From contig NZ_CP146064.1 in NCBI RefSeq assembly GCF_037013405.1, positions 270,001 through 302,000 of the forward strand: 32,000 nt of DNA, given 5' to 3'. The notes below the pieces were generated by a model. It did not search any database, had not been told where the DNA came from, and was given only the letters and a program-made list of their open reading frames with translations. Within the stretch, counting starts at the first letter, position 1; every line of letters begins with the position of its first letter. Below are positions 1 to 25,936 of this stretch, in pieces. This DNA comes from Candidatus Nanosynbacter sp. BB002 (lineage in GTDB: Bacteria > Patescibacteriota > Saccharimonadia > Saccharimonadales > Saccharimonadaceae). The position numbers and the translations under genes are program-made.

Positions 1-812
<812 letters not shown>

Positions 813-829
813 CTCTGTTATTTTACCAT

Positions 830-872
830 ACAAAGGAGAAAACCCCTCACTCTCGCCATTGAGAATGAGGGG
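830..872 (-). terminator. Rho-independent terminator ending the minus-strand non-coding locus
   Basis: On the minus strand, the hairpin CCCCTCA-TTCTC-AATGGC-GAGAG-TGAGGGG (843-872) is followed directly by TTTTCTCCTTTG. Confidence 0.7.
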
Positions 873-988
873 CGTTGGTGGGCTCAAGCGGTTCTGCTCG
901 GAGTTGATCTCGACGGTGAGAAAAACTGCCACGAGTGAATCTCGCGAACCCGGGGAGGGAGAGATGACACTCCATTGTGCCATCTCAG

Positions 989-1058
989 TGGATGTGACGG
1001 GAGTCGAACCCGCGAGACGGTGGACTTCGATTGTCCTGTCTCCCTACTTGGCACACCC
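989..1058 (-). ncRNA. tRNA-shaped RNA #1 (70 nt). It has an alanine/tmRNA-like acceptor with G3-U70 and discriminator A, no D stem and no usable anticodon loop.
   Basis: Minus-strand sequence: GGGTGTG CCAAGTAGG GAGAC A GGAC AATCGAA GTCC ACC GTCTC GCGGG TTCGACT CCCGT CACATCC A. It has a 7-bp acceptor helix with a G-U at the third pair and a canonical T arm (GGGTTCGACTCCC). The central helix GAGAC/GTCTC encloses a 4-bp hairpin. The loop AATCGAA lacks U33, and CCA is not encoded. Confidence 0.55.
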
Positions 1059-1260
1059 TGACCATTCTGTGTTGAAAACATTGGTCTTCTCGATGTAGCG
1101 GTATACACCTGCTTTGTTTTGTTGTACGTCATTGGACCACAAAACAAAGGTGAGAAGTCAATGAAACTCAGGCGGAGTGGTGAAACACCCAAGTTTTTTC
1201 GCTTACACACGGCTTTACACGGGTGATGAGTCCGTGTGGCTGCGCATGCAACCGCGACGG

Positions 1261-1349
1261 CGGACACAGCGGGACTCGAACCCGCAGCCTCCCGTTGCGT
1301 CGACACCGTTGTCGACGCGGGCGCTCTGCCATTTAAGAGCTATATGTCC
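1261..1349 (-). ncRNA. tRNA-derived gene #2 (89 nt) whose 7-nt anticodon loop is replaced by a palindromic hairpin; either a non-decoding tRNA-like RNA or a tRNA pseudogene
   Basis: Minus-strand sequence: GGACATA TA GCTC TTAAATGGCA GAGC G CCCG-C-[GTCGAC AACGGT GTCGAC]-GCAA-CGGG AGGCT GCGGG TTCGAGT CCCGC TGTGTCC G. The acceptor, D arm, 5-nt variable loop and T arm are all canonical. The anticodon stem CCCG/CGGG encloses about 21 nt that form a perfect 8-bp hairpin (GCGTCGAC/GTCGACGC) with a 6-nt loop. Confidence 0.6.
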
Positions 1350-1674
1350 TGTGATTCTTTTCTGGGCTACCAGCTGGGCGAATCACCCCAGGGGCGGACA
1401 GACGCCCTTTACTGACCGTGGGGGTCAGTGGTTTCGGGGTCGCACAAACCCCGACTGTCAAACCTCTACCAGTGGAGCTTCCTGGGACGGTCGCTCCGAC
1501 CTGTGGCCGCGTTTTCTATGGCCTGCTTCTCGAGCAGGATCGCGTAGAGGCAGTTGAGAGTTTCTCGCGGCGCTTTATGTTTGCAGGCATACTCATAGTC
1601 TTCCTGCGCACGGCGTCGCTCATCGGTCTGGTTTCCAGCCAAGGGTCTCACCCCCTTTCCGCCGCAGTTGCGGC
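1350..1674 (-). ncRNA. Unassigned structured RNA region of about 325 nt (family not recognised)
   Basis: No credible ORF is present. The region is G+C-rich and packed with short perfect hairpins on the minus strand:
- GCCGC-AACT-GCGGC
- GCAGG...CCTGC
- GCCGCG...CGCGGC, which encloses CCTGC-TCGAGAA-GCAGG
- TCGGGGT-TTGTGCG-ACCCCGA
- ACTGACC-CCCAC-GGTCAGT
- GGGCG-TCTGTC-CGCCC
- CTGGG-GTGATTCG-CCCAG
- CTGG-TAGC-CCAG
Boundaries are approximate. Confidence 0.35.
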
Positions 1675-1786
1675 AAAAGAAAAAGAGCTAACCCTCTCTC
1701 GAACCACGCTTTTGTGCGAAGCATGGTCAGGATTTGACGCCATTTGCGGCGTCAAATCGAGAAGTTAGCTCCACGAACAAAAGCTA
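1675..1786 (-). ncRNA. Small Y-shaped RNA of about 100 nt with a U-tract end (family not recognised)
   Basis: On the minus strand, an 8-bp closing helix GAGCTAAC/GTTAGCTC (1764-1771 with 1685-1692) stacks on TTCTCG/CGAGAG. These enclose two hairpins: ATTTGACGCC-GCAAAT-GGCGTCAAAT (10 bp) and CCATGCT-TCGCACAAA-AGCGTGG (7 bp). The structure is followed by TTTTTCTTTT (plus-strand 1675-1684). A promoter lies just upstream. Confidence 0.4.
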
Positions 1787-1792
1787 GTGAAT

Positions 1793-1821
1793 ATCATAAC
1801 ACGAACTGTAAAAAATAGCAA
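1793..1821 (-). promoter_or_regulatory. Sigma70-type promoter for the non-coding locus
   Basis: On the minus strand: TTGCTA (1821..1816), a 17-nt spacer, then TATGAT (1798..1793) preceded by TGT (extended -10-like). It sits directly after the helicase stop codon. Confidence 0.45.
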
Positions 1822-1838
1822 CAATATATGGAAAATAA

Positions 1839-4800
1839 TTATATTTCTTCTGTCAATAAGTCATTTTCGAACTGCAGCATACCTTTGTAGTCTGCGGAAT
1901 ACCCAGAGATGTCTGGCAGATCCAGGGTGGTGATTTTACGCCAGACGACGCCGACAAGCCGAGCAAATTCAGCTAATTCCTCCTCGGAGAACGTATCCTC
2001 TAGGCTGAGAATGTCGCCGGTTTTCATGTCTGGCTCGACGAATTGCAGGCGGGCGCCGGTGAAGGTGAAATTGCCATAATCACGCGATGACTTGACCAAG
2101 AGCTGGTAGAACATCAACTGTTGGCGGTATTTGTGGAGCTTGATTTTTTCATAATCAGACGTGCCCTTCCAGGAGTGCGACGGCTTGCCGGTCTTGTAGT
2201 CGGTGACGTAGATGGTCTTTGCTGTTTTATCTATATCAACCAGGTCCAGCTTTCCTGTCAGCTGCGCTTGGCCGACGAAGGAATTTTGATTGGCAAAATT
2301 AAGTTCAGCCAGCTGCTGCTGGGTGAAGCTGCTCTGTTTGGCGTCCAGAAAAGCGGTCAAGACTGACTGGCCTTTTTCGGTGAACAGTTTGGTGTCATCT
2401 GGTGACAGATGTTGCGCTGCTAAGGTTTGAGCATACAAACGCATAATCTCTGAGCGTGGTGGCAAGTTTCCGTCTGCGACGAACATATCGTGTAGTTGTT
2501 GTAGGCAGGTGTGGACAGCGGTTCCGTAGGCAGCGGATGAGCTTTTGGCTTGCGGAAAATGAAGCAAATTATTTAACAAAAATCCTTGAGGTCCGCCATG
2601 TGAGACGTCGAGGAAATTGTTCAGATGGGTGGCGGACAGTTTGTAGTGCTGTAAGATTGGCGCCAAGACTTCCTGTAGGGTTGTGCCGTGTGGTTCAGTC
2701 AGTCTGGCGTGCCAGTCGGTGAGCAGCGTCTCGGTCGCGTCAGCAGTCTCAGAGGTATCAATGGTCGATGTATCTAGCTGTAGAGAGCTTAGGAAGCTGG
2801 CGATCAAATTGTCTTTACCGCCAGTGTCTGTGAGGCTATGACTGATGTGCAGGGTTTGCTTGGCGCGAGTCATGGCGACGAAAAATAGGCGCAAACGCTC
2901 GTCGTAGTTGTTGCCTGCTGGTTGCAGCTGCAGGTTGGCTGGATAGCGGATGAGCCGGCTGCGTACACGGACTTTCTCACCCCACATGTTGTCAGTCGCG
3001 CCGATGATGAATACGTGCGGAAATTCCAAGCCCTTTGATTTGTGGGCGGTCATGAGATTAATTGAGCCTGATTTGTGCTCGGCGGCTGGTCTGATGCTGG
3101 TGAGGCGAGTCTTGGTTAAATGGTGGAGATCGATGAACTGGAGAAGCTGCGTCAAGGTTGGCGTTGCCTCAGTGTAATGGTCACGTAATTTCTGGCGCAA
3201 GGTGCGCAGCGCTTCTAGGGTGGTGAGGTAGGCTTCTGGGTCTGACTGTAATTTGTCTGGTGAAAAGTAGTAGGTATAGAGGGCGCGGTTGGTGGCGGTT
3301 TCGGTGAGACCTAGTAATTCATCAATGTGTTCTTCGAGTGTGAGGTTGGGGGTGTTTTTGGCTTGCTCTAGTAACCACTGAGCCAATGGTTCGAACGTTG
3401 TTTGGGTGAGCATGGCTTCCAGCCAGAACTGTCGTTTGTGCCAGGCAGCTAGGCTTAATTTCCAGATGTCAGTGGCGGCGAAGTCAAATGCTGGATGCGC
3501 CAGTAGCTCTGGCAGTAAGCTGTTGGCGTTGGTTAGGTCGTTGTTGTGAAGTGAGACAACGATGCGAGCTACGAGCTCCAGCGCTTTGATACTGTCTAGT
3601 TCCAGGATGTCGTCGTGATGTTCGTAGTTGACGCTGATGTTGTTTTGGTAGAGATGAGGCAAGAGTTCAATCAGTTCATGATGCCGGCGGGATATGACGG
3701 CGATGTCTTCGGGCGGCGTACCTGAAGCGATGAGATGTGCAATTTGCCTAGCAACGCCTGCCCTTTCGTCCAGCGGCGTCATGAAACGACTAAGGTTCAC
3801 GGTGGCGCCTGATGATGAAGCGTGGGCGGTGAGTTGTTTGGATAGGTCGGGAATAGTGTTTTCCAAGCGGTCGCTACCTTGGGTGATGACGCTGCGGGCG
3901 GTGGTGAGGATTTGCTCTGCCGAGCGGTAGTTGTCGGTCAGGACGATGACGGCTGGGTCATGATAGTGCTGACGGAAGCGCTGGATATTGCCGACATTGG
4001 CGCCTTGGAAACTGAAGATGGCCTGGTCGTCGTCGCCCACTGCCATGATGTTTGGCTCAGGCTCGTCGCCAGTCAGATTGAATAGTAACTGCAACTGCGC
4101 CAAGTTAGTGTCTTGGAACTCGTCAACCATGATGAACTGGTATTGCTCTTGGAGGTTGGCGCGCAGATCTGGCTGGTGTTTGCAGGCATCTAGCACATTT
4201 AAAATCATGTCGTCATAGTCAAACAATCCGCGCTGTGCCAGCGCACTGCGGTACTGGTCGTATACGTGAGTGACGGCACGCAGTTTAGTGATTGATTCAC
4301 TGTCCTTTAAGACAAACTCCCCTGCTGCATTCTTCTTACACCACGCATTCTTCCAGGCGGTGATGGGTTTGGTGCTGTCATTCTCCAAGGCCTCTTGTGC
4401 GGCGTTGGCCATGCTGAGCGCCAGAACGTTGGCGTACGGTGTGATGGCTGCTAGCAGAGGCTGCGGTGTGATGGCTGCTGCTATTTCTGCAACGTTGGCA
4501 AAGGTCGGGATGGTTGATTTTTTGATGGTGGCTTGGAAAAGTTGTTTGATGGCCTCAGAAATTTCTGTGATTGTTTGCTCCACATCGTCCAAAATATGTT
4601 GTATTTCTTCAGAGGCCAGGCCGTTGCTTTTGAACTCGGAAATGGTTTTGAGCGTTTCTTTGAGGTAGATAAATTCATCATTATTTTTGGCGTTGAGTGG
4701 ATTATCCCAATCCATACCTTCGAAAATTTCTTGTAGAATTTGTTGCTGCGTCAACTCGTCAGTCGGCTGCCGATCTGCGCCGCGGAAAAAATATTGTCGG

Positions 4801-5631: not shown

Positions 5632-7952
5632 TGAACGGTTACTGGGAAATTATTCGTCGCAATTTGTTTTCGCCGATTGTTATCGCAATTTTTCTGCTGG
5701 CGGGCGCGTTGATTTATGCTCGGGAGTACCGCGATGCGTGGTTTATCTCAGTGGTGATTGTCGTGAACTCGTTGATTGGTATTGTTCAGGAAATTCGTGC
5801 CAAACGAGCGCTCAAGAAGCTGGAGTTGATGAGTCAGCCACGAGCGCGGTTGTTGTCGGCTGATGGTTCCGTGACGGAAGTGGCGTATGATGCGTTGCGC
5901 GTTGGCGACAAGATTCAGCTGATTGCTGGTGATGAAGTGCCAGCAGATGTAGAGGTACTTGAGGTTAAAGGTCTGGAGTTAAACGAAAGTATGTTGACTG
6001 GCGAATCGGCGGCGGTAGAAAAAAGCGTTGGTGATACAGCTTGGGCGGCGACCACTGTGTTGGCTGGCTCTGGCGAGGCTCGCGTCACAGCGGTTGGTGC
6101 GGATACAAAAGCCGGTGCCATCAGTCAAGTGTTGAAACAGTACAAGCCAGAGCTGACCCCTTTGCAACGAGCAATTCAACGAGCCATTAGCTTTTTGACG
6201 TTTGGTGCGTTTGGGCTGGCAGCGTTGATTTTCATCGCTTACATGACATCTGGTCAGGACTCGGTGCAGATATTGAAAACCATCACTTCGGCGGCCGTGA
6301 CGGTTGTGCCAGAGGGGCTGCTGCTAGCAAGTTCACTGCTCTTGGCATTTGGTTCGATCAAATTAGCGCAAGCCAGAGTCTTACCGCAGAAACTGTCAGC
6401 CATTGAAGCCATGGCGCTACTCAACTTGTTGTGTGTCGACAAAACTGGCACGCTTACCAGCGACGAAGTGACGTTGGAAAAAATCGTTGCTTTGGGTAGT
6501 GGCGATCAATCAGACGAAACGCTTTCGAAAATTGTCGCCTTGATCGCGGAGCAAACCAGTGGTGGCAATATCACTGGTCAAGCTATCTTGGAAGCAGCCA
6601 CGCCGCTCAAGGACGCCAAAATCATTGACGTTATGGCGTTCTCGTCTGCGCGTAAAATGGCGGGTCTGCGGTTTGAGTCTGAGGGCAAAATCCACACAGT
6701 CGTCATGGGCGCACCAGAGTTTGTTACAGAGTTGGCGCCAGTTGATGCAATGGGTCAGCGTCAAATTAACGAATGGGCTGACGCGGGTCTGCGTGTGCTG
6801 CTGTTGGCTGAGTTTGATGATTCTCGGAGCGCTCTGAAGGATTTGCCTGTTGGGTCTGGCCGTGCCATCGGTGCGGTGATTTTGCGCAATGCGCTGCGCG
6901 ATGGTGTTCAGAAAACTGTTCAATTTTTGCAAGACCAAGGCGTCAGTATCCGGGTGATATCTGGCGACAACCCGCGGACGGTGCAGTTCATCGCTTCGGC
7001 GGCTGGCATTAATAATTCTGACAAAGCCATCACTGGTGCGGCGCTGGCTGCATTGAGTGACAAAGATTTTGTCAAGGCGGCTGACGAACACGTTATATTT
7101 GCTCGGGTACATCCAGAGCAGAAAGAGCGGCTGATTGCGCATTATAAAGATCAGGCCCTGTTCACCGGCATGGTTGGTGACGGCGTCAATGACGCGCTGG
7201 CGCTCAAAAAGGCTGATCTTGGCGTGGCTATGCACGCGGGCGCACCAGCGTCGCGTCGCGTCTCAGATATTATCCTGTTGAATAACTCATTCACCTCTTT
7301 GCCACTTGGTATGCGGCTAGGTAACCGAATTATGCAAGCGATTGAAGTGATCGCTACCCTGTTCTTCCACAAAATTATCTATGGCGTGGTTCTGTTAATG
7401 TGTACGCTGTCGTTGGGCATGCTTTATCCATATCAGCCGCGTCACATCACCTTTATGAATATTTTCCTGGTGACACTGCCGACTTTGATGTGGACACTTT
7501 TTCCGCCTGTGCCAAACCATCGCATCAATCCTCGTCTGTTTTGGCGTCATACGCTGATGAACGTGATGCCCATCGCGCTGATCACGGGTCTGACAGTGGC
7601 GTTCACCTATTGGATCGGCTCTGCCATCTTCCCTGATCGTCCGGAGGAAGTTGCCACCATGACGGTACTGACGGCGACATTCTATGGCGTCTATCTGGTA
7701 TTTTTGGTCGGACCAATGCTGGGCGTCACCTTAACGCGCAACGCCAGAAAAGCGCGCCTGTTGTATATGCTGGCGGTGAGTATTGTAGCAGCTGGTAGCT
7801 TTGGTATCGGTCCACTCCGCCGATTCTTTGACTTTACCAAGCCAGACATCATCGTCCTATTGCCAGCGCTCGGTGTCATCGTCCTGGCAGCAATATTACA
7901 GTGGTGGCTCGCACTGCGCGCTGGTGTGAAGGTCAGATCTTCGCAGTCTTAA
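5631..7952 (+). CDS. P-type cation-transporting ATPase (E1-E2 type)
   Basis: Motifs seen are TGES (MLTGESAAVEK), the phosphorylation site CVDKTGTLT, the hinge GDGVNDALALKKADLGVAM, and multiple hydrophobic segments. I chose the start MNGYWEII because it overlaps the upstream stop codon. Confidence 0.9.
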   Translation: MNGYWEIIRRNLFSPIVIAIFLLAGALIYAREYRDAWFISVVIVVNSLIGIVQEIRAKRALKKLELMSQPRARLLSADGSVTEVAYDALRVGDKIQLIAGDEVPADVEVLEVKGLELNESMLTGESAAVEKSVGDTAWAATTVLAGSGEARVTAVGADTKAGAISQVLKQYKPELTPLQRAIQRAISFLTFGAFGLAALIFIAYMTSGQDSVQILKTITSAAVTVVPEGLLLASSLLLAFGSIKLAQARVLPQKLSAIEAMALLNLLCVDKTGTLTSDEVTLEKIVALGSGDQSDETLSKIVALIAEQTSGGNITGQAILEAATPLKDAKIIDVMAFSSARKMAGLRFESEGKIHTVVMGAPEFVTELAPVDAMGQRQINEWADAGLRVLLLAEFDDSRSALKDLPVGSGRAIGAVILRNALRDGVQKTVQFLQDQGVSIRVISGDNPRTVQFIASAAGINNSDKAITGAALAALSDKDFVKAADEHVIFARVHPEQKERLIAHYKDQALFTGMVGDGVNDALALKKADLGVAMHAGAPASRRVSDIILLNNSFTSLPLGMRLGNRIMQAIEVIATLFFHKIIYGVVLLMCTLSLGMLYPYQPRHITFMNIFLVTLPTLMWTLFPPVPNHRINPRLFWRHTLMNVMPIALITGLTVAFTYWIGSAIFPDRPEEVATMTVLTATFYGVYLVFLVGPMLGVTLTRNARKARLLYMLAVSIVAAGSFGIGPLRRFFDFTKPDIIVLLPALGVIVLAAILQWWLALRAGVKVRSSQS

Positions 7953-9283
7953 TGCGGCATTTTATCCAAAACCACCAGATTCTCAATGTGTGGCGTGCGC
8001 GGGAAGAGATTGTAGCCCTGATGATGTACGATGTGATATTTCTCACTGAGCAAAGCAACATCCCGAGCTTGAGTGACAGGGTTGCAGCTCAGATAGACAA
8101 TGCGTGGTGGCAATTGTTCTAACAAGCGGTCGACGACGTCCGCATGCAAGCCAGCTCGTGGCGGATCGACGATGATGAGATTGTTGGGGTGGATGTAATC
8201 AAGGGCTTGTTCACTGGCTGCCAAGATGGCTTTGGCATTGTGTTCACGTCCCAAAGCGTGAATATTGCGCTGCATTTCCTGGACAGCATGTTCGTTAATT
8301 TCTACCAAAGTGACATGTTCTCTGCCGATAGTGAGGCCGATAGTACCAACACCCGAATACATATCAACAGTTGATAGAGCGTTATTTGACTCTACTGACG
8401 CGGTACGAATCCACGCTGCCATGTCGGTGAGTGCCTGCTCATACACCGGCAAATTGACCTGAAAAAATCCTTCAGCGACATAGCGAAACGGAACGCCTAG
8501 TATCTCGTCAGTGAGAACGGTGTCACCAAACGCCGCTAGCCGTTCGGTGATGACACTGGCAGGACTTTTGGGGTTGGAATAGATGATTTCTCCACCTTGG
8601 GCTGACAGGTTGGCTGCTTCCTCCGCGGTGATGACATCTTCCAGGTGGTCTTTGAGGTATAATTGCCAGATACACTTGCCTGACCGGCTACATCTGATGA
8701 GTAGTGTTTTCAGATTGCGTGCGGTGACTGGCTTGGTGCGCAGCAAGTCGCGAATTTCTAAGGCTAGCGTGTTGATCTCGGGACGAGCAAGCGAGGTGCC
8801 GTCGACGGTGATTTTACCCTTTGAGCCACGTCGGAAAAATGCCAAATCAAGCGTATCAGTTTCTGAGTCCGGGTCTGTGTCGCTGTACCAGCTGTATTCA
8901 ACTTTATTACGATACGCCAGTTGCTGCTCGTCTGTATAGACTGTCGGTGTAGTCGGCAAGGTAACGTGATGTAGTTCAAACGCTTCGGCGATCAACTGGG
9001 CTTTGTACTGCTGCTCTGCTGAAAAGTTCATGATTTGCCAGGGGCTGGTGCTGAGGTAACTGTCTGGATCGACCGGAGTGATGCGCTCAGAACTGGCGTG
9101 ATGAACCTCAGTTATAACGCCTTCGACGAACTTTGATTTTTTCTTGGTCACCCTGATAGTCACTTGTTCGCCTGGCAATCCACCCCATACAAATGCTTTA
9201 CGGCCATCTGTCAGCGTGCCGATGGTCTGCCCACCGCCCACGATGTTTTCCAGGGTTAGGGTTGCAGTCTGCGCTTTCTTCAT
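7949..9283 (-). CDS. SAM-dependent RNA (uracil-5)-methyltransferase, TrmA/RlmD (RumA) family
   Basis: The N-terminus is TRAM-like (GGGQTIGTL...GEQVTIRVTKKK). SAM motif I is VDMYSGVGTIG, motif IV is DPPRAGL, and the catalytic Cys is in YLSCNP. I chose the ATG at 9283, which is preceded by TACAAT plus 6 nt. The ORF-track start at 9301 is a TTG. Confidence 0.85.
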   Translation of the reverse strand: MKKAQTATLTLENIVGGGQTIGTLTDGRKAFVWGGLPGEQVTIRVTKKKSKFVEGVITEVHHASSERITPVDPDSYLSTSPWQIMNFSAEQQYKAQLIAEAFELHHVTLPTTPTVYTDEQQLAYRNKVEYSWYSDTDPDSETDTLDLAFFRRGSKGKITVDGTSLARPEINTLALEIRDLLRTKPVTARNLKTLLIRCSRSGKCIWQLYLKDHLEDVITAEEAANLSAQGGEIIYSNPKSPASVITERLAAFGDTVLTDEILGVPFRYVAEGFFQVNLPVYEQALTDMAAWIRTASVESNNALSTVDMYSGVGTIGLTIGREHVTLVEINEHAVQEMQRNIHALGREHNAKAILAASEQALDYIHPNNLIIVDPPRAGLHADVVDRLLEQLPPRIVYLSCNPVTQARDVALLSEKYHIVHHQGYNLFPRTPHIENLVVLDKMPH

Positions 9284-9335
9284 TGCCCTATTGTACCCCA
9301 AATAGACCGCATTTGGGAAATAGTCAAGTAGCGGC

Positions 9336-9899: not shown

Positions 9900-9974
9900 T
9901 GGGCCGTCGCCAAGTGGTAAGGCACCAGGTTTTGGTCCTGGCATTCGGGGGTTCGAATCCCTCCGGCCCAGCCA
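9900..9974 (+). tRNA. tRNA-Gln (anticodon UUG)
   Basis: The cloverleaf reads TGGGCCG TC GCCAAGTGGTAAGGC A CCAGG TTTTGGT CCTGG CATTC GGGGG TTCGAAT CCCTC CGGCCCA G CCA. It has the U1-A72 pair and the D-arm GCCAAG-GGTAAGGC typical of bacterial tRNA-Gln. CCA is encoded. Confidence 0.95.
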
Positions 9975-10112
9975 CATTGTATATCAACCGTCTAGCCAGA
10001 AGTGGTTGGGCGGTTTGTTTGTATGATTTGGTCTATTGTATAGATACCCCCTATCTTTGTGCCTATATCTTGCGTAGGTCTAGCGCCAAATGTATTGAGT
10101 GTGAGGAATATA

Positions 10113-13100
10113 TTAATCTCTAAACCGCTCTTGCTTAATTATGCGGTTTCTTTCTCTCTCATAAGTCTCTGCAAGCTCACGTAGTGATGTTGCAAGATTT
10201 ATAAAACCCAAAGACTCAATCTCATTTGCACGATTCCGCCATTTATCTCTCAAGGAGGCCTCAGCCTCGCCCGTTTCGTCTACTACGTGCATACCACGTG
10301 CATTATGAATACCCATGTTGTACCCAGATCTCATAGATACTGAATCATTTCGGTCTAAAATTCTTGCTACCGTTTTGTTGATCCATAAGCCGCTTTTATC
10401 TTCAGGAGAGTTTATTAGGTATCCACCTATAACAGATTGGGCGATACCCAAGTGCCCACTCATCTTACATATCTCTTCGACCTTGTATATCCAGGTAATA
10501 AAATCATCTTCTCGGAATGTGCCATATTGGTCTATGCCTGGCATAACCATAAAGTCATTAAACGATAATATTTTTAATAATCTGTATTGGATAGCATCGT
10601 CAATCTCTTGCTGCTTGACATCGGGAAGTTCTGATTTGTAGGCAGTCTTAATTAGATCGCAGAAAAAATCTGCATCATTTGCAATTCGATATATTAATGC
10701 TCGTGGTTGTCCTATGCCATGTTTTCCAAAAAGACTAATACAGCCCCACTCCGCCTCCCATAGGTTCGTTCTTGTATAGTCAATGTTGTCGTATAAATAC
10801 TTGAATACTCGACCTATTTCGTACTGTAAGTTATTTGTGCCTGAAATGTTTTCAGTGGTATTTAATGATGCCATTAGTGCTTTTAGACATAGTTCTGGAT
10901 CAATTTGCTGTTTGATGGAGCTATCACCCATAATGATCACTGAGGCAATATATTCAATTGCGGCCAGAGGGCGCTTGGCCTTCAGAAGGTTTCTAACTGC
11001 AGCTTCGGAATATTTATCATCAATCGTATGTCTAAAATTATCGACCCTATCCCAATATCCTTTAGTAAGGTCTTTATTTTGTTGTGCGTCCAATAGGTCC
11101 CAGGTGCTTTGGCTAAATGGCAAAGCTAGAAGAAGTAGAATCTTCTGTTCGTTATTCCAGCTGGCAAAATCTAACTTATTAACCCAGTTGATATCACCTT
11201 TATAATAGAAATATCTCGTATAAATGAAGTTACTAATAAATTCTTTTTCAGCTTTATTCTCGTTGAGGAATTTAGGTAATAGCATGTTTTCGATGGATGG
11301 ATAATTTATAGAGCCCAGGCTAGATCCTATGGTGTACGGCATCTTGGCTTGGTTAATAAGCTCATTCAGCTGGCGAATGGCATTATCTGAGTTTAAAATC
11401 TTGAGAAGTGATTCTCGCTGTTTCTCTTCCAGTTCTTTCTTGCCTTTTTCCCAGTCGTTATAGCCTATAAGATCATGGTCATAATTACTAAATAGATATA
11501 TAGACTTACACAAATCATCTTCAGGCTCTATATCACTGGCAATTTTTTTGAGTATCTTTACCCTTTCGTCTTCATCTTTACTGCGCCGATCTAGATTATT
11601 TATTTTTTTAAGTAATACCTCCCATACTACTTGCCTATCTTTATCAGTCATGTTTTGCAGGCGCTTATTTAGTTGGTTGGTAAAACTCGGCAAAGTATCA
11701 TCGGTAAGATGGTTAACGCTATTGATTGCATCAACGATTTCTTGAAGAGACTCGGTTGTATCTATGTAGAGATTTGAGTAGTATGAACTCTCCTTCCATA
11801 GCTCTTGTTGCGTAACAGGCTGAAGAGTATTGGTAATATCTAGCCATTCTGGAAGTTTCCTCTCCATGGTTGTTTGAGTCATATTCGGCAGTAAACCCTT
11901 GAGTAGCTCTCGCCCGACAGCTTTATGCTCATTGACTATTTTTTCGACCACACCGTGTTGAACCTCTAAGGGGGCAAGCGTTTTCGGCTGCCACGGCAGG
12001 ATCGTATGTAGGATGGTATCTAGGGAACGCTTTTTATTCTCTGTCTGATCAATTTCGAGGGTTGCAATCTTAGCTAACACTAGACTAGCTCGTGAAAAAT
12101 ATTTTTTATCCCAAGATAAATCAGCCAGCGCCCAGTATAAACCAGTCATGTAATCTGGCTGAAAGAATGAGTCACCTGAACTTTCCTTTATACCTGTCGC
12201 AATTGGATTATCATTTTTTATTTTAAGGGTGCTCTCTAGTCTTGACAAAAACTGAACTGGAGATGCTTGAGCGATTAAAGAGGCGTTGTCTGTGATGCTC
12301 ATCCATAGTTTTGGATTTTGACTATCAGAAAGTAGCCCGGACACTATATTATTTGCCGTATTGGCTATTTTGTTGGCAGAGCACTTGCTAAACATACCTT
12401 GATTATTCGCAAGCATGGCCATACCATTTGCTACGCCAGTCCTAATTGTCGCTGAGTATGCTCGGCTCTTTTTGTAAATATTAGCCATATATCTTTCGTC
12501 TATTGGCAAATCTAGCGCTGGATTAATTTCACTCAGGATCCTTAAGTAAATATCCGCAAAAACATCAATATGGTTGTCATAAATGCATTTACTTAGCTGC
12601 TCAACCGTAGATTTAATGTCAAGAACCTTCCACGTAGTATCTCTTAGTTCTAGTACTTGATCATCGGTAGAATTTATTTCTTGGACTACGTCCAACAAGG
12701 AGTCTTCATCACATCTTAGCAATTCAGACACTATTTTTTTATCATTTGAATTTGCAGAGTCAAATTCACCAATTAAACATAGTAATGCTAGCTCTTTTTT
12801 GTGTGCTGTTTTAATTGTGATCTTGTTTTTTGACGGTTCTGCTTTTTTGACTAATTGATTTTCATCCTGTAAGCTCACTACATCATCTTGTCGGATTACT
12901 TTCTCTTCTTTGAATATCTCCAGTAGTTTTTTAGGCAGATCATCTTTTAATAGCTCTATCTGGTCTTTATTACGAGTAGCTACATAATGACAGAGCCGTT
13001 CCCATACAACTTTAGGGCTTACGTTATCTTTCCATTTTTTCTGTGCCAAGATGCTATGAATCAAGGCGACATTAATATCACCGTCTTCAAACAGATTCTC

Positions 13101-13724
13101 ATGCATGTCAGATTTTATTATGAAGAAAGATTTCAAGAACTCAAATTCCACTTCTCTATCTAAGGCAATGTTATTGTTTGCTAGTGTTAGTTTTTCGCGC
13201 AGATACCTAAGACCATTAAGCTCATCTTTATTTCTGCCTAAAACATTATTATCGTAGTTTTCCCAGAACTGATCAGCCGACTGATAAGAGCTTTGAATAT
13301 GAGTCAGTATATTCTTCAGCCCAATTCCACTCTTCTCAAGCTCGCCAGTGACGAGCATTATTCTATCAGAGTTCCTATTAAAGCTCTGGCTGTTAAAATC
13401 GTTCCAAGCATCTTTTATGGTTTTTGTAAATTCACCGTTTGAAAGACGAACTTTTCGCTTTACCTGAACCAGTAGCGTCTTTTCTCTTCTCGGGTTGTTC
13501 AGGTCTTTAAGGGTTACTTCGCAATCATCAGTCTTCCTTCCATATCGCTCTGCCTGGAATACTATCCTCGTTACTTCGCAGTTGTCCATCCTAGGCACTA
13601 GTCCACCTGTGATCATTTGGATCACAAAAAATGCCTGCACGGAATGCTCAAAAACATACCCATCGCCAGATGCGGATATGGGGTTTGTGCATCCCTTGGG
13701 TATTGCCGAGTCGCCACTGCTCAT
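10113..13724 (-). CDS. Giant orphan protein (1203 aa) with a PD-(D/E)xK-like nuclease head and about 1100 aa of uncharacterised, probably helical, sequence
   Basis: This is an uninterrupted 3.6-kb ORF in visibly AT-rich DNA. The N-terminus carries ordered motifs GYVFEHSVQAFFV (Glu helix), KTDDCEVTL (Asp strand) and LLVQVKRK (QxK). I found no GxxxxGK[ST] Walker A anywhere. A TATAAT box lies 8 nt upstream of the ATG. Confidence 0.8.
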   Translation of the reverse strand: MSSGDSAIPKGCTNPISASGDGYVFEHSVQAFFVIQMITGGLVPRMDNCEVTRIVFQAERYGRKTDDCEVTLKDLNNPRREKTLLVQVKRKVRLSNGEFTKTIKDAWNDFNSQSFNRNSDRIMLVTGELEKSGIGLKNILTHIQSSYQSADQFWENYDNNVLGRNKDELNGLRYLREKLTLANNNIALDREVEFEFLKSFFIIKSDMHENLFEDGDINVALIHSILAQKKWKDNVSPKVVWERLCHYVATRNKDQIELLKDDLPKKLLEIFKEEKVIRQDDVVSLQDENQLVKKAEPSKNKITIKTAHKKELALLCLIGEFDSANSNDKKIVSELLRCDEDSLLDVVQEINSTDDQVLELRDTTWKVLDIKSTVEQLSKCIYDNHIDVFADIYLRILSEINPALDLPIDERYMANIYKKSRAYSATIRTGVANGMAMLANNQGMFSKCSANKIANTANNIVSGLLSDSQNPKLWMSITDNASLIAQASPVQFLSRLESTLKIKNDNPIATGIKESSGDSFFQPDYMTGLYWALADLSWDKKYFSRASLVLAKIATLEIDQTENKKRSLDTILHTILPWQPKTLAPLEVQHGVVEKIVNEHKAVGRELLKGLLPNMTQTTMERKLPEWLDITNTLQPVTQQELWKESSYYSNLYIDTTESLQEIVDAINSVNHLTDDTLPSFTNQLNKRLQNMTDKDRQVVWEVLLKKINNLDRRSKDEDERVKILKKIASDIEPEDDLCKSIYLFSNYDHDLIGYNDWEKGKKELEEKQRESLLKILNSDNAIRQLNELINQAKMPYTIGSSLGSINYPSIENMLLPKFLNENKAEKEFISNFIYTRYFYYKGDINWVNKLDFASWNNEQKILLLLALPFSQSTWDLLDAQQNKDLTKGYWDRVDNFRHTIDDKYSEAAVRNLLKAKRPLAAIEYIASVIIMGDSSIKQQIDPELCLKALMASLNTTENISGTNNLQYEIGRVFKYLYDNIDYTRTNLWEAEWGCISLFGKHGIGQPRALIYRIANDADFFCDLIKTAYKSELPDVKQQEIDDAIQYRLLKILSFNDFMVMPGIDQYGTFREDDFITWIYKVEEICKMSGHLGIAQSVIGGYLINSPEDKSGLWINKTVARILDRNDSVSMRSGYNMGIHNARGMHVVDETGEAEASLRDKWRNRANEIESLGFINLATSLRELAETYERERNRIIKQERFRD

Positions 13725-14004
13725 AATATAGAATTATAGCACTTATATTAATACATAGCTTGATAGCTCGCCGACGGTTACACGCCTTACAGCGGTCTAT
13801 ATTTATCACGTTCGTCTGATGTGCTAGGTTTATGTGTGTATAGCTAATATATCAGCGCGGTTATTTTCATTCATGACAACGCACCGACTAATATCTTTTG
13901 AAAGGTCCAGAGAATAACGATCAAAATAACCATTTAATGATATGATTACAGGGTCTATAATAAAGTCATTGTATGTCTTGAAGTTATTAACAGAAAGGAA
14001 AAAG

Positions 14005-25457: not shown

Positions 25458-25718
25458 TCAGGAGAGAAATTGTTTAAGTTCTCTCTCGTCTATGGCGTAT
25501 AGAGTATAAGGGGTTTCCTTATACTCTAATTGTTGATACCGCTCAGCGGTATCAACAATTAGCAGAACCCTATGTGTCGGGTACTGGGCAATAGCGAAGA
25601 GAACTTCGCCATGCTTTAGATAGAAGGTAGCCTCCCCATAGGAGGAGGCCTCGATTCGGCGTCCGACTTTACCGGACGAAAGAGCTCTCATAATACGGTG
25701 GACGGTTTTTGTATCCAT
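25458..25718 (-). CDS. Small hypothetical protein (86 aa)
   Basis: This is an intact ORF with an SD-like GAGGAGAGAG upstream. It is transcribed divergently from the HExxH pair. I recognise no motif. Confidence 0.55.
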   Translation of the reverse strand: MDTKTVHRIMRALSSGKVGRRIEASSYGEATFYLKHGEVLFAIAQYPTHRVLLIVDTAERYQQLEYKETPYTLYAIDERELKQFLS

Positions 25719-25936
25719 CTTTCCACTCTCTCCTCATCCGAGCGGAGTGCTCGTGTTTTCCCTCAGGAAAAACACTGCTCAGCACCCGGATGGCGCGTGA
25801 GCAAGATGAGGTTTCATGGCGCCATTTTCACTTCAAAATACCACCACAAAATCTCACCTTGCTCTATTCTCAACTGCTTGTCAACATACAACTTTTGGAC
25901 AAAGCCATAAAACTTCGTCAACAAAAGTCTACTATC

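Follow-up and report, generated by a model that had tools for sequence, protein, structure and literature searches.

The locus analysed here occupies approximately 1 kb on the minus strand of a 32,000 nucleotide (nt) stretch of the genome of Candidatus Nanosynbacter sp. BB002 (NZ_CP146064.1, positions 270,001 to 302,000; referred to throughout as the window). It lies between the end, at position 1839, of an upstream gene for a UvrD-type helicase fused to a PD-(D/E)XK nuclease and dus, the gene for a tRNA-dihydrouridine synthase (812..3), which is partial in the window. The closest relatives of dus are 81–94 % identical, the single one of the best relatives that is named to species being Ca. 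Nanosynbacter lyticus, and the host of the window is an oral-type, Nanosynbacter-like Saccharibacterium (TM7). In order of transcription, the locus holds a promoter, a structured leader, a gene for a 58 amino acid (aa) protein, a block of hairpins in the 3′ untranslated region (3′-UTR), two tRNA-like modules separated by a spacer, a further hairpin, a four-way junction and a terminator. All are on the minus strand and are given below in window coordinates. An earlier reading of this DNA, made without database searches and referred to here as the sequence-only reading, had described a 1 kb protein-free operon of unassigned structured RNAs. A single promoter-to-terminator unit carrying RNA modules that are unassigned in Rfam 15 is indeed present, but it is not free of protein-coding sequence, as approximately 180 nt of a 325 nt region thought to be packed with hairpins is a 58 aa open reading frame (ORF) under purifying selection.

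Eighty dus loci from species-representative genomes were compared (individual related loci are designated by L-numbers, e.g. L001 or L038), and about 35 of them have the intergenic region in common. In the Nanosynbacter-type Saccharibacteria, the interval between the helicase-nuclease gene and dus is conserved as a promoter-to-terminator unit. When the closest seven relatives were aligned, two blocks (1860..1639 and 1459..800) were found to be 85–99 % identical, and the approximately 180 nt lying between them could not be aligned in most relatives. The window and L038, for example, are 99 % identical over 1860..1639 and 93 % identical over 1459..800, and the body of the ORF is unalignable. The unalignable segment is an ORF in every close relative examined.

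In the window, this small ORF (sORF; 1642..1466, LAGNQTDERRRAQEDYEYACKHKAPRETLNCLYAILLEKQAIENAATGRSDRPRKLHW) begins with TTG, and an alternative GTG start at 1651 would give a product of 61 aa. It is preceded by a Shine-Dalgarno (SD) region, GGAAAGGGGGUGA (1660..1648), which is kept in all 27 sORF-bearing loci. The 58 aa protein has 12 homologous clusters that share 60–90 % identity with 23 invariant columns, the ratio of nonsynonymous to synonymous differences (pN/pS) relative to L001 is 0.30, and both other frames contain stop codons. The sequence-only reading had seen no credible ORF here. With a conserved reading frame, purifying selection, a ribosome-binding site and homologues, comparative evidence establishes 1642..1466 as a conserved, coding small-protein gene. 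A zinc-ribbon allele found in the same slot in L002, L005, L006 and L038 has pN/pS values of 0.12–0.26 in five of six pairwise comparisons, and the sixth, between the near-identical pair L005 and L002, includes zero nonsynonymous differences. Across the 27 loci, the slot is occupied by at least six unrelated families of 44–61 aa, including helical families, DnaJ-like CxxCxGxG families and several zinc ribbons, and identical cassette families recur in clades with different leaders. Comparison of the loci hence presents the sORF as an exchangeable cassette between conserved RNA flanks, a feature that the sequence-only reading had missed. An integron or attC-like reading was rejected, there being no integrase nearby.

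The helical D family comprises 172 clusters, none with a functional name and any that are named being annotated as ‘hypothetical protein’, and in the loci inspected it sits between the helicase gene and dus, including in distant Saccharibacteria that do not have the RNA modules. AlphaFold models the 58 aa protein as a two-helix hairpin (predicted local distance difference test score, pLDDT, 83), for which a Foldseek search returned no significant neighbour (best E=1.5, to a WHEP-TRS helical hairpin). A Pfam search with ten cassette proteins gave only sub-threshold similarities to zinc-ribbon, DnaJ-CXXCXGXG and Anti-TRAP domains.

The promoter (1821..1793), found by a consensus scan where the sequence-only reading had placed it, is of the sigma-70 type (TTGCTA, 17 nt, TG-n-TATGAT). 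It is invariant in seven close relatives, and other clades have a promoter-like TTGACA/TATAAT pair at the equivalent place. The leader that follows (1772..1685) folds as a three-way junction made up of P1 (GGAGCUAAC../..GUUAGCUC), a P2 hairpin and a P3 hairpin with the conserved loop GCUUCGCACAAAAGC. Together with a U tract behind P1 (1684..1675) it corresponds to the Y-shaped RNA of approximately 100 nt ending in a U-tract that had been described earlier, and its folding energy lies well below that of shuffled sequences (z=−6.45). RNAalifold analysis of the leaders of 16 loci revealed compensatory changes at 14 of 29 pairs. A covariance model built from the leader (R1) finds exactly one copy in the 32 kb window and one copy, always at the same position, in each related locus, 14 of which had not been used for training. 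It gave no leader match in more distant Saccharibacteria. The U tract, which was read from the sequence, forms a terminator-like element with P1. It is confined to the clade that includes the window and is missing from the clade made up of L022–L032, and would therefore be an expression platform of one clade, not part of the core. The leader is followed, ahead of the ribosome-binding site, by a hairpin, GCCGC-AACU-GCGGC (1674..1661), with covariation at two of five pairs (C-G/A-U and G-C/U-G), and the SD region itself lies partly within a short hairpin of 3–5 base pairs (bp). The leader probably gates downstream expression, via P1 and the U tract in this clade.

In its placement directly behind the promoter, its covarying helices and its conserved loop and junction nucleotides, the leader resembles riboswitch-type or protein-binding three-way-junction leaders and RNA thermometers, and in the window-type clade the U tract and the SD-overlapping hairpin add to this likeness. 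It differs from riboswitch-type leaders in that it matches no Rfam class, the downstream gene is variable, and the leader outlives loss of the sORF (in L020). Neither the leader nor the terminal junction matched any known riboswitch class when compared to described aptamer models. Identity of the Y-shaped RNA as a hammerhead or twister was rejected, as the core sequences are absent.

Downstream of the sORF, the 3′-UTR block (1459..1350) consists of GACAGUC, five hairpins and the A-rich linker GAAAAGAAUCACA. Hairpins HA (1453..1435) and HB (1428..1412) show compensatory changes in a 17-locus alignment, in which HC (1407..1392; AGGGCGUCUGUCCGCCC) is invariant in sequence (AGGGCGUCYGUCCGCCC). They are followed by HD (1391..1374), which resembles a T arm, and HE (1373..1362). 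A search for the HC 19-mer found none in viral contigs. A single-stranded linker, GAAAAGAAUCR, is conserved directly 5′ of the tRNA-like module. Fold energies are lower than those of shuffled sequences both for 1350–1680 (z=−3.9) and for 830–1260 (z=−4.6). Of the region of approximately 325 nt of perfect short hairpins proposed in the sequence-only reading, approximately 180 nt are ORF. Pairing between the A-rich linker GAAAAGAAUC and the U tract of the leader, as in MALAT1, was considered and rejected; the complementarity is 7–8 nt of low complexity without covariation, as the U tract varies and the A tract does not.

The first tRNA-like module (1349..1261) was recognized earlier as tRNA-derived, and this is confirmed by an ARAGORN call of tRNA-Ser(cga) at 1259–1349 and by a match to the Rfam tRNA model of 42.3 bits, above the gathering score of 29. 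However, though these scores would favour it, it is extremely unlikely that this module is the functional tRNA-Ser(CGA) of the genome. The Rfam alignment places 23 nt in the ‘anticodon loop’ and leaves a variable region of 5 nt, such that the module includes neither the 5 bp stem with a 7 nt loop nor the class II variable arm of a canonical tRNA-Ser, and position 14 is U, not A. The minimum free energy structure has a 12 bp arm with a 4 nt loop (−42.8 kcal/mol) and is approximately 20 kcal/mol more stable than the cloverleaf with a 7 nt loop (−23.1 kcal/mol, 3 pairs only). For orthologues, ARAGORN gives Val(gac) or Ser(cga), those with the same loop sequence being called Val(gac), and the module is missing from most related genomes. 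The call of tRNA-Ser(CGA) for these sequences is unreliable.

The second module (1058..989), described earlier as tRNA-shaped, has a GGGUGUG/CACAUCC acceptor stem, a 9 bp interrupted arm and a canonical T arm, and is without a D stem. It includes G1-C72, G2-C71, G3:U70 and A73, and has C at positions 8 and 9. ARAGORN makes no tRNA call for it in the window, where it also falls below the Rfam tRNA gathering score, and no Rfam family reached its gathering threshold in eight related loci. Its shape is nevertheless borne out by the ends of the Rfam transfer-messenger RNA (tmRNA) model, which match it with 28.6 bits, less than the 47 set as gathering score. Its orthologues receive ARAGORN calls of Arg, Phe, Trp, Leu, Glu or ‘???’ (six different ‘anticodons’). 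As several orthologues retain a UUUGCAA loop, i.e. the loop of tRNA-Ala(UGC), and the G3:U70/A73 set is present, we infer that module 2 arose from tRNA-Ala(UGC).

More generally, among T-loop motifs upstream of dus, a perfectly complementary 7 nt 5′ strand is found 25–130 nt away in 45 of 49, and shuffled sequences lead to an expectation of 4.2. On 20 distinct sequences, pairing in the acceptor and T stems reaches 99 %, with compensatory changes at nine of the 12 pairs; the acceptor helix was a criterion for selection of this set and the T stem was not. Between the two stems, both length (59–127 nt in total) and sequence vary, including the ‘anticodon’. Covariation thus delineates a tRNA-like family in which conservation is limited to the acceptor stem and T arm and the anticodon arm is free to vary. 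The modules end in C-Y-R and not CCA, which is encoded by the true tRNA-Gln of the window. The acceptor types of the modules found in the slot also differ, with Ala-like and Gln-like (U1-A72/G73) types among them, and this argues for a role that depends on shape rather than on a specific amino acid. In the L022–L032 clade, a second tRNA-like module (module B) has its own promoter.

A metagenome scan for the module 2 acceptor and T arm yielded 63 loci, 51 of which show the helicase gene, dus or both nearby, and in every one of these 51 that is long enough to hold both genes the module is between them. The remaining 12 matches are unrelated tRNAs or tmRNAs of other organisms. Short (59–78 nt) tmRNA/tRNA-like elements with the same Ala-type acceptor were seen in metagenome contigs from other organisms. 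Three of them (L230 873–950, minus strand; L246 217–294, minus strand; L232 1132–1208, plus strand) encode CCA, and the 59–60 nt elements in L239, L262 and L223 do not. ARAGORN calls a tmRNA in none of the six, and it is possible that these short elements are message-less tmRNA-like RNAs.

The main rival to a processing role for module 2 is that it and its orthologues are alanine-accepting, non-decoding RNAs that are charged by alanyl-tRNA synthetase (AlaRS) and have a function of their own, as a message-less tmRNA-like domain or as an alanine donor, e.g. for cell-wall bridges. AlaRS charges minihelices that carry G3:U70, which counts in favour of this. G1-C72, G2-C71, G3:U70 and A73 are kept in nine species-level genomes in which positions 4–7 and the inner arm change. 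This is the full major AlaRS identity set, and it is likewise present in a distant element (in L035, described below). The remnant UUUGCAA loops and the alignment of both ends of the Rfam tmRNA model to module 2 point in the same direction. Against this, G3:U70 is lost in L009, L010 and L014, and in L001 and L002 a 1 nt deletion in the 5′ strand of the acceptor stem (GGGUUGCC for GGGUGUGCC) disrupts the stem, module 1 being intact. Module 2 can be dispensed with, as it is absent from L012 and L013. It encodes no CCA and lacks a tag reading frame, and the acceptors of other modules in the slot are non-Ala. In sister lineages it has been lost, has decayed or has changed identity, which speaks against an essential role, and we consider the alanine-acceptor explanation unlikely.

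The likeness of module 2 to tmRNA (RF00023) extends to G3:U70, A73, the missing D stem, the canonical T arm and the alignment of the model ends. However, 35–38 nt lie between those ends (in the window, 35 nt stand in for 328 model positions), there is neither a tag frame nor pseudoknots, the score of 28.6 bits falls short of 47, CCA is not encoded and the module is dispensable in sister lineages. ARAGORN found no tmRNA in the window or the related loci. Message-less mitochondrial tmRNAs have reportedly been described in jakobids by Jacob et al. in 2004.

An origin of the modules is suggested by L035, from a distant Saccharibacterium, in which the slot between the helicase gene and dus (3014–3927) holds a 54 aa sORF of the D type followed by five tRNAs that score with Rfam. 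The first of these (3271–3412; 49.5 bits), which is missed by ARAGORN, has G3:U70, A73 and an insert of approximately 75 nt in the anticodon loop. This arrangement of sORF and tRNA array suggests descent from a co-transcribed tRNA cluster. That ancestry, together with the gain and loss of modules between lineages and the module 2 copies of L001 and L002 that are visibly decaying, could also be accommodated if the locus were a decaying tRNA cluster with neutral intergenic remnants and functionless hairpins. We regard this as distinctly improbable, as the acceptor and T stems are kept paired via compensatory changes across about 35 species and the strands of HC and the four-way junction are nearly invariant. 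The TM7x genome has been described as approximately 94 % coding (10.1101/2022.03.25.485537), so that 1 kb of junk would be unlikely to persist. The decaying copies are at approximately 990–1060 in L001 and 3755–3825 in L002, and one of two tandem modules appears to decay.

The spacer between the two modules (1260..1059) is found only in the seven genomes that carry both of them. Its first 107 nt or so are nearly invariant and the rest exists as two alleles, too little variation to test its helices. The A/U-rich hairpin and the alternative ACACGG/CCGTGT pairings pointed out in the sequence-only reading are present. Hairpin H3 (986..961), also predicted there, has a conserved CAAUGGR loop that is constant while the stems differ, the loop being carried on different stems in L008, L009, L010, L014, L052 and L063. 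The terminal four-way junction (951..880) comprises P1 (GGGUUC/GAGCCC), P2 (GCGAG-AUUCA-CUCGU), a variable P3 and P4 (CGAGC-AGAACC-GCUUG), and was found in 28 loci. When 15 junction variants were folded independently, most (approximately ten) gave the same four-helix architecture, and there are compensatory changes in P1 and P3 and one in P4. What had been taken for a possible internal terminator at about 915–945 corresponds to helix P2 and a portion of P3 in this junction, and its U run is not kept in relatives. Pairing of the junction loop GAACC with GGUUC of the T arm was rejected; it involves only 5 nt, and the junction is present in L013, which has no tRNA-like module. The unit is closed by an intrinsic terminator (873..832), a G+C-rich hairpin with a 13 bp stem (873..842; 7 G-C pairs) followed by the U tract UUUUCUCCUUU. 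It is conserved in relatives and matches the strong terminator previously placed at 872..830.

Beyond the terminator, an extended −10 element, TGgTAAAAT (828..812), was read from the sequence 7 nt before the dus ATG at 812. There is no SD sequence upstream of dus, and the extended −10 arrangement is kept in relatives. From this position of the element, dus seems to be a separate transcript and is probably leaderless. These findings bear on whether the tRNA-like and four-way-junction elements could be a tRNA-mimic leader through which Dus regulates its own gene. The elements are directly upstream of dus and co-oriented with it in most loci, and the terminator behind the four-way junction is reminiscent of an attenuator. 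However, dus is equipped with an extended −10 element of its own, and the terminator is very strong. In L004, L011 and the L022 clade, moreover, 0.5–1.4 kb containing another gene or promoter separate dus from the junction and terminator. Such regulation is therefore very unlikely.

The locus varies in composition between lineages. L016 and L020 have no sORF but still carry the promoter, the tRNA-like module and the downstream 3′ hairpins, L020 retaining the leader and L016 only part of it. Conversely, the leader, sORF and 3′-UTR block are all present in L012 and L013, where another structured module replaces the tRNA-like one. These gains and losses, together with those in L001, L002 and L022–L032, lead to the conclusion, drawn from comparison of the loci, that the parts are separable and none is obligatory. 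A conserved structured element, module X (..CAGCGGAAUGGUAG..CCAUCGGAACGGAAUCUGCGUGCCUGGAUCGCUGCCGUUC..), was observed at approximately 2700–2830 in L011 and 3690–3830 in L012 and L013, and in the latter two it occupies the slot of the tRNA-like module.

Four RNA modules, namely the leader, the 3′-UTR hairpin block, the tRNA-like modules and the terminal four-way junction, covary over about 35 species, and this comparative evidence shows them to be under structural selection. Covariation of four RNA modules with no Rfam assignment, and retention of RNA parts by L016 and L020 after loss of the sORF, would be expected of an operon made up purely of non-coding structured RNAs, in which the sORF is incidental or secondary. 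That explanation is nonetheless improbable given the pN/pS values of 0.12–0.30, the conserved SD region, the 12 and 172 homologous clusters of two cassette families and a synteny of sORF and dus that reaches distant Saccharibacteria without these RNA modules.

At gathering score, a search of the 32 kb window against Rfam 15 matched only tRNA within the locus, and RAGATH-10 elsewhere. No match to ROOL, GOLLD, OLE, HEARO, raiA, ribonuclease (RNase) P, signal recognition particle (SRP) or 6S RNA was found on either strand of 700–1950 at E≤10. The sequence-only reading had noted that hallmarks of the housekeeping RNAs were missing, with which the lack of any RNase P, SRP, 6S or tmRNA assignment agrees; reading the region by eye as RNase P, SRP, 6S or permuted tmRNA also failed, as there are no conserved cores. 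Its suggestion that ROOL, GOLLD or similar large ornate families should be considered did not bear fruit. Like them, the locus is a long hairpin-rich non-coding stretch beside tRNA-type genes, but there is no model match at E≤10 and no phage association (no blastn match in 50,697 phage records), and its separable modules form a mosaic centred on an ORF. A phage or mobile origin was accordingly rejected. Sub-threshold Rfam matches (ctRNA_p42d, IMES-5, plastid UTRs and pieces of long non-coding RNAs) were dismissed as noise, and the 120 matches from a 15-mer scan (L081–L160 listed) were disregarded as due to chance. No description of the locus was found in Rfam 15 or the searchable literature, in which a large screen for RNA motifs of the human microbiome (PMC8040213) could hold anonymous pieces of it, and a search for literature on tRNA-like RNAs, tmRNA or structured RNAs in Saccharibacteria found nothing relevant.

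Taken as a whole, the locus may be best described as a regulated small-protein mRNA fused to tRNA-derived RNase P/RNase Z processing modules, a statement for which we consider belief and doubt to be evenly balanced. A single transcript would include, in order, the leader, the 58 aa gene, the 3′-UTR block, the two tRNA-like modules, the four-way junction and the terminator. The tRNA-like modules would have descended from a tRNA cluster co-transcribed with the sORF and would act as handles for cleavage by RNase P and RNase Z, splitting the primary transcript in three. The predicted products are an mRNA of leader and sORF whose 3′ end is protected by hairpins, the released tRNA-like RNAs and a structured RNA from the 3′ part, and the leader (P1 and the U tract in this clade, and the short SD hairpin) would gate downstream expression. 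The processing step by itself is held with somewhat less confidence, falling a little short of an even chance. RNase P, RNase Z and the CCA-adding enzyme require no more than a minihelix of acceptor and T arm as their substrate. Here, a coaxial acceptor/T-arm minihelix follows the single-stranded 5′ leader GAAAAGAAUCR, and it is because the minihelix is kept, the modules are at the boundaries between parts and their acceptor identities vary that a role as cleavage handles is proposed. The suggestion in the sequence-only reading that the modules are RNase P/Z punctuation is plausible for the same reasons.

There are precedents for this arrangement. RNase P matures the 5′ end of tmRNA (PMC3985003) and makes the 3′ end of MALAT1 at the tRNA-like mascRNA (PMC8457004), and in systems of the mascRNA and TMER type the tRNA-like fold is a site of cleavage by RNase P and/or RNase Z (PMC8457004, PMC4337559). 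As in mascRNA/MALAT1, MEN-beta and the TMERs of gammaherpesvirus 68, a non-decoding tRNA-like fold lies within a longer RNA, at the boundary of a structured upstream part and downstream hairpins. Unlike those eukaryotic or viral systems, the locus is bacterial, has a small-protein mRNA upstream, and its cleavage is only predicted. The Rfam mascRNA match over module 1 (17 bits) is far below the gathering score, and the relationship is one of analogy, not membership. Co-transcripts of tRNA and mRNA, such as Escherichia coli thrU-tufB, and the tRNA punctuation of mitochondria also have tRNA shapes that are co-oriented with a message and abut it, and real tRNAs occupy the equivalent slot in L035. 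The modules described here differ in having lost their anticodon arms and decoding, such that only a processing or shape function could remain.

Several observations weigh against the proposal of a regulated mRNA with processing modules. The tRNA-like module is not obligatory for the sORF (L012 and L013), and some tRNA-like modules have their own promoter (L016 and module B of the L022 type) and so may be independent RNA genes and not processing signals. G3:U70 and A73 persist across divergent lineages, which selection for shape alone does not predict, and a hairpin that begins 3–6 nt past the discriminator base may hinder RNase Z. With respect to gating by the leader, the SD hairpin is weakly supported, having one-sided changes only, and the U tract is clade-specific. 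According to a preprint on the TM7x transcriptome, no small RNAs have been validated (10.1101/2022.03.25.485537).

Elsewhere in the window, a full-length RAGATH-10 match (91.9 bits; 25725–25815, minus strand) is directly 5′ of an SD sequence and an 86 aa ORF (25458–25718, minus strand), which is upstream of a 502 aa ORF that resembles cysteinyl-tRNA synthetase (by eye only). This constitutes a second unit of structured leader and small ORF in the window. Directly after tRNA-Gln (9900–9974), the G+C content falls to 0.37–0.40 over approximately 10000–14000, compared to about 0.50 elsewhere, and this stretch, which holds a 1203 aa ORF (13724..10113, minus strand) with no Pfam match, looks like an island integrated at the tRNA-Gln gene. 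A gene for a TRAM-domain tRNA/rRNA U5-methyltransferase (7949–9301, minus strand) is 6 kb from the locus, and the presence of two tRNA-modification enzymes, it and Dus, flanking the region is probably a coincidence.

The locus offers four covariation-supported RNA motifs that are not in Rfam 15 and a bacterial family of tRNA-derived non-decoding modules, and it serves as a warning that calls such as tRNA-Ser(CGA) in these genomes can be pseudo-tRNAs. A hypervariable cassette between conserved flanks is a pattern typical of diversifying selection, as in defence, host interaction or stress. Relatives such as TM7x are cultivable and naturally transformable. It is conceivable, though in our view improbable, judging from comparative data, that the epibiotic Saccharibacteria possess an RNA chassis that co-expresses swappable small proteins with a message-less, alanine-accepting tRNA mimic. 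If so, the mimic would be derived from tRNA-Ala, with decoding lost and the AlaRS identity set complete, and may serve for tagless ribosome rescue, for non-ribosomal transfer of alanine, or as a handle for the marking or trafficking of RNA.

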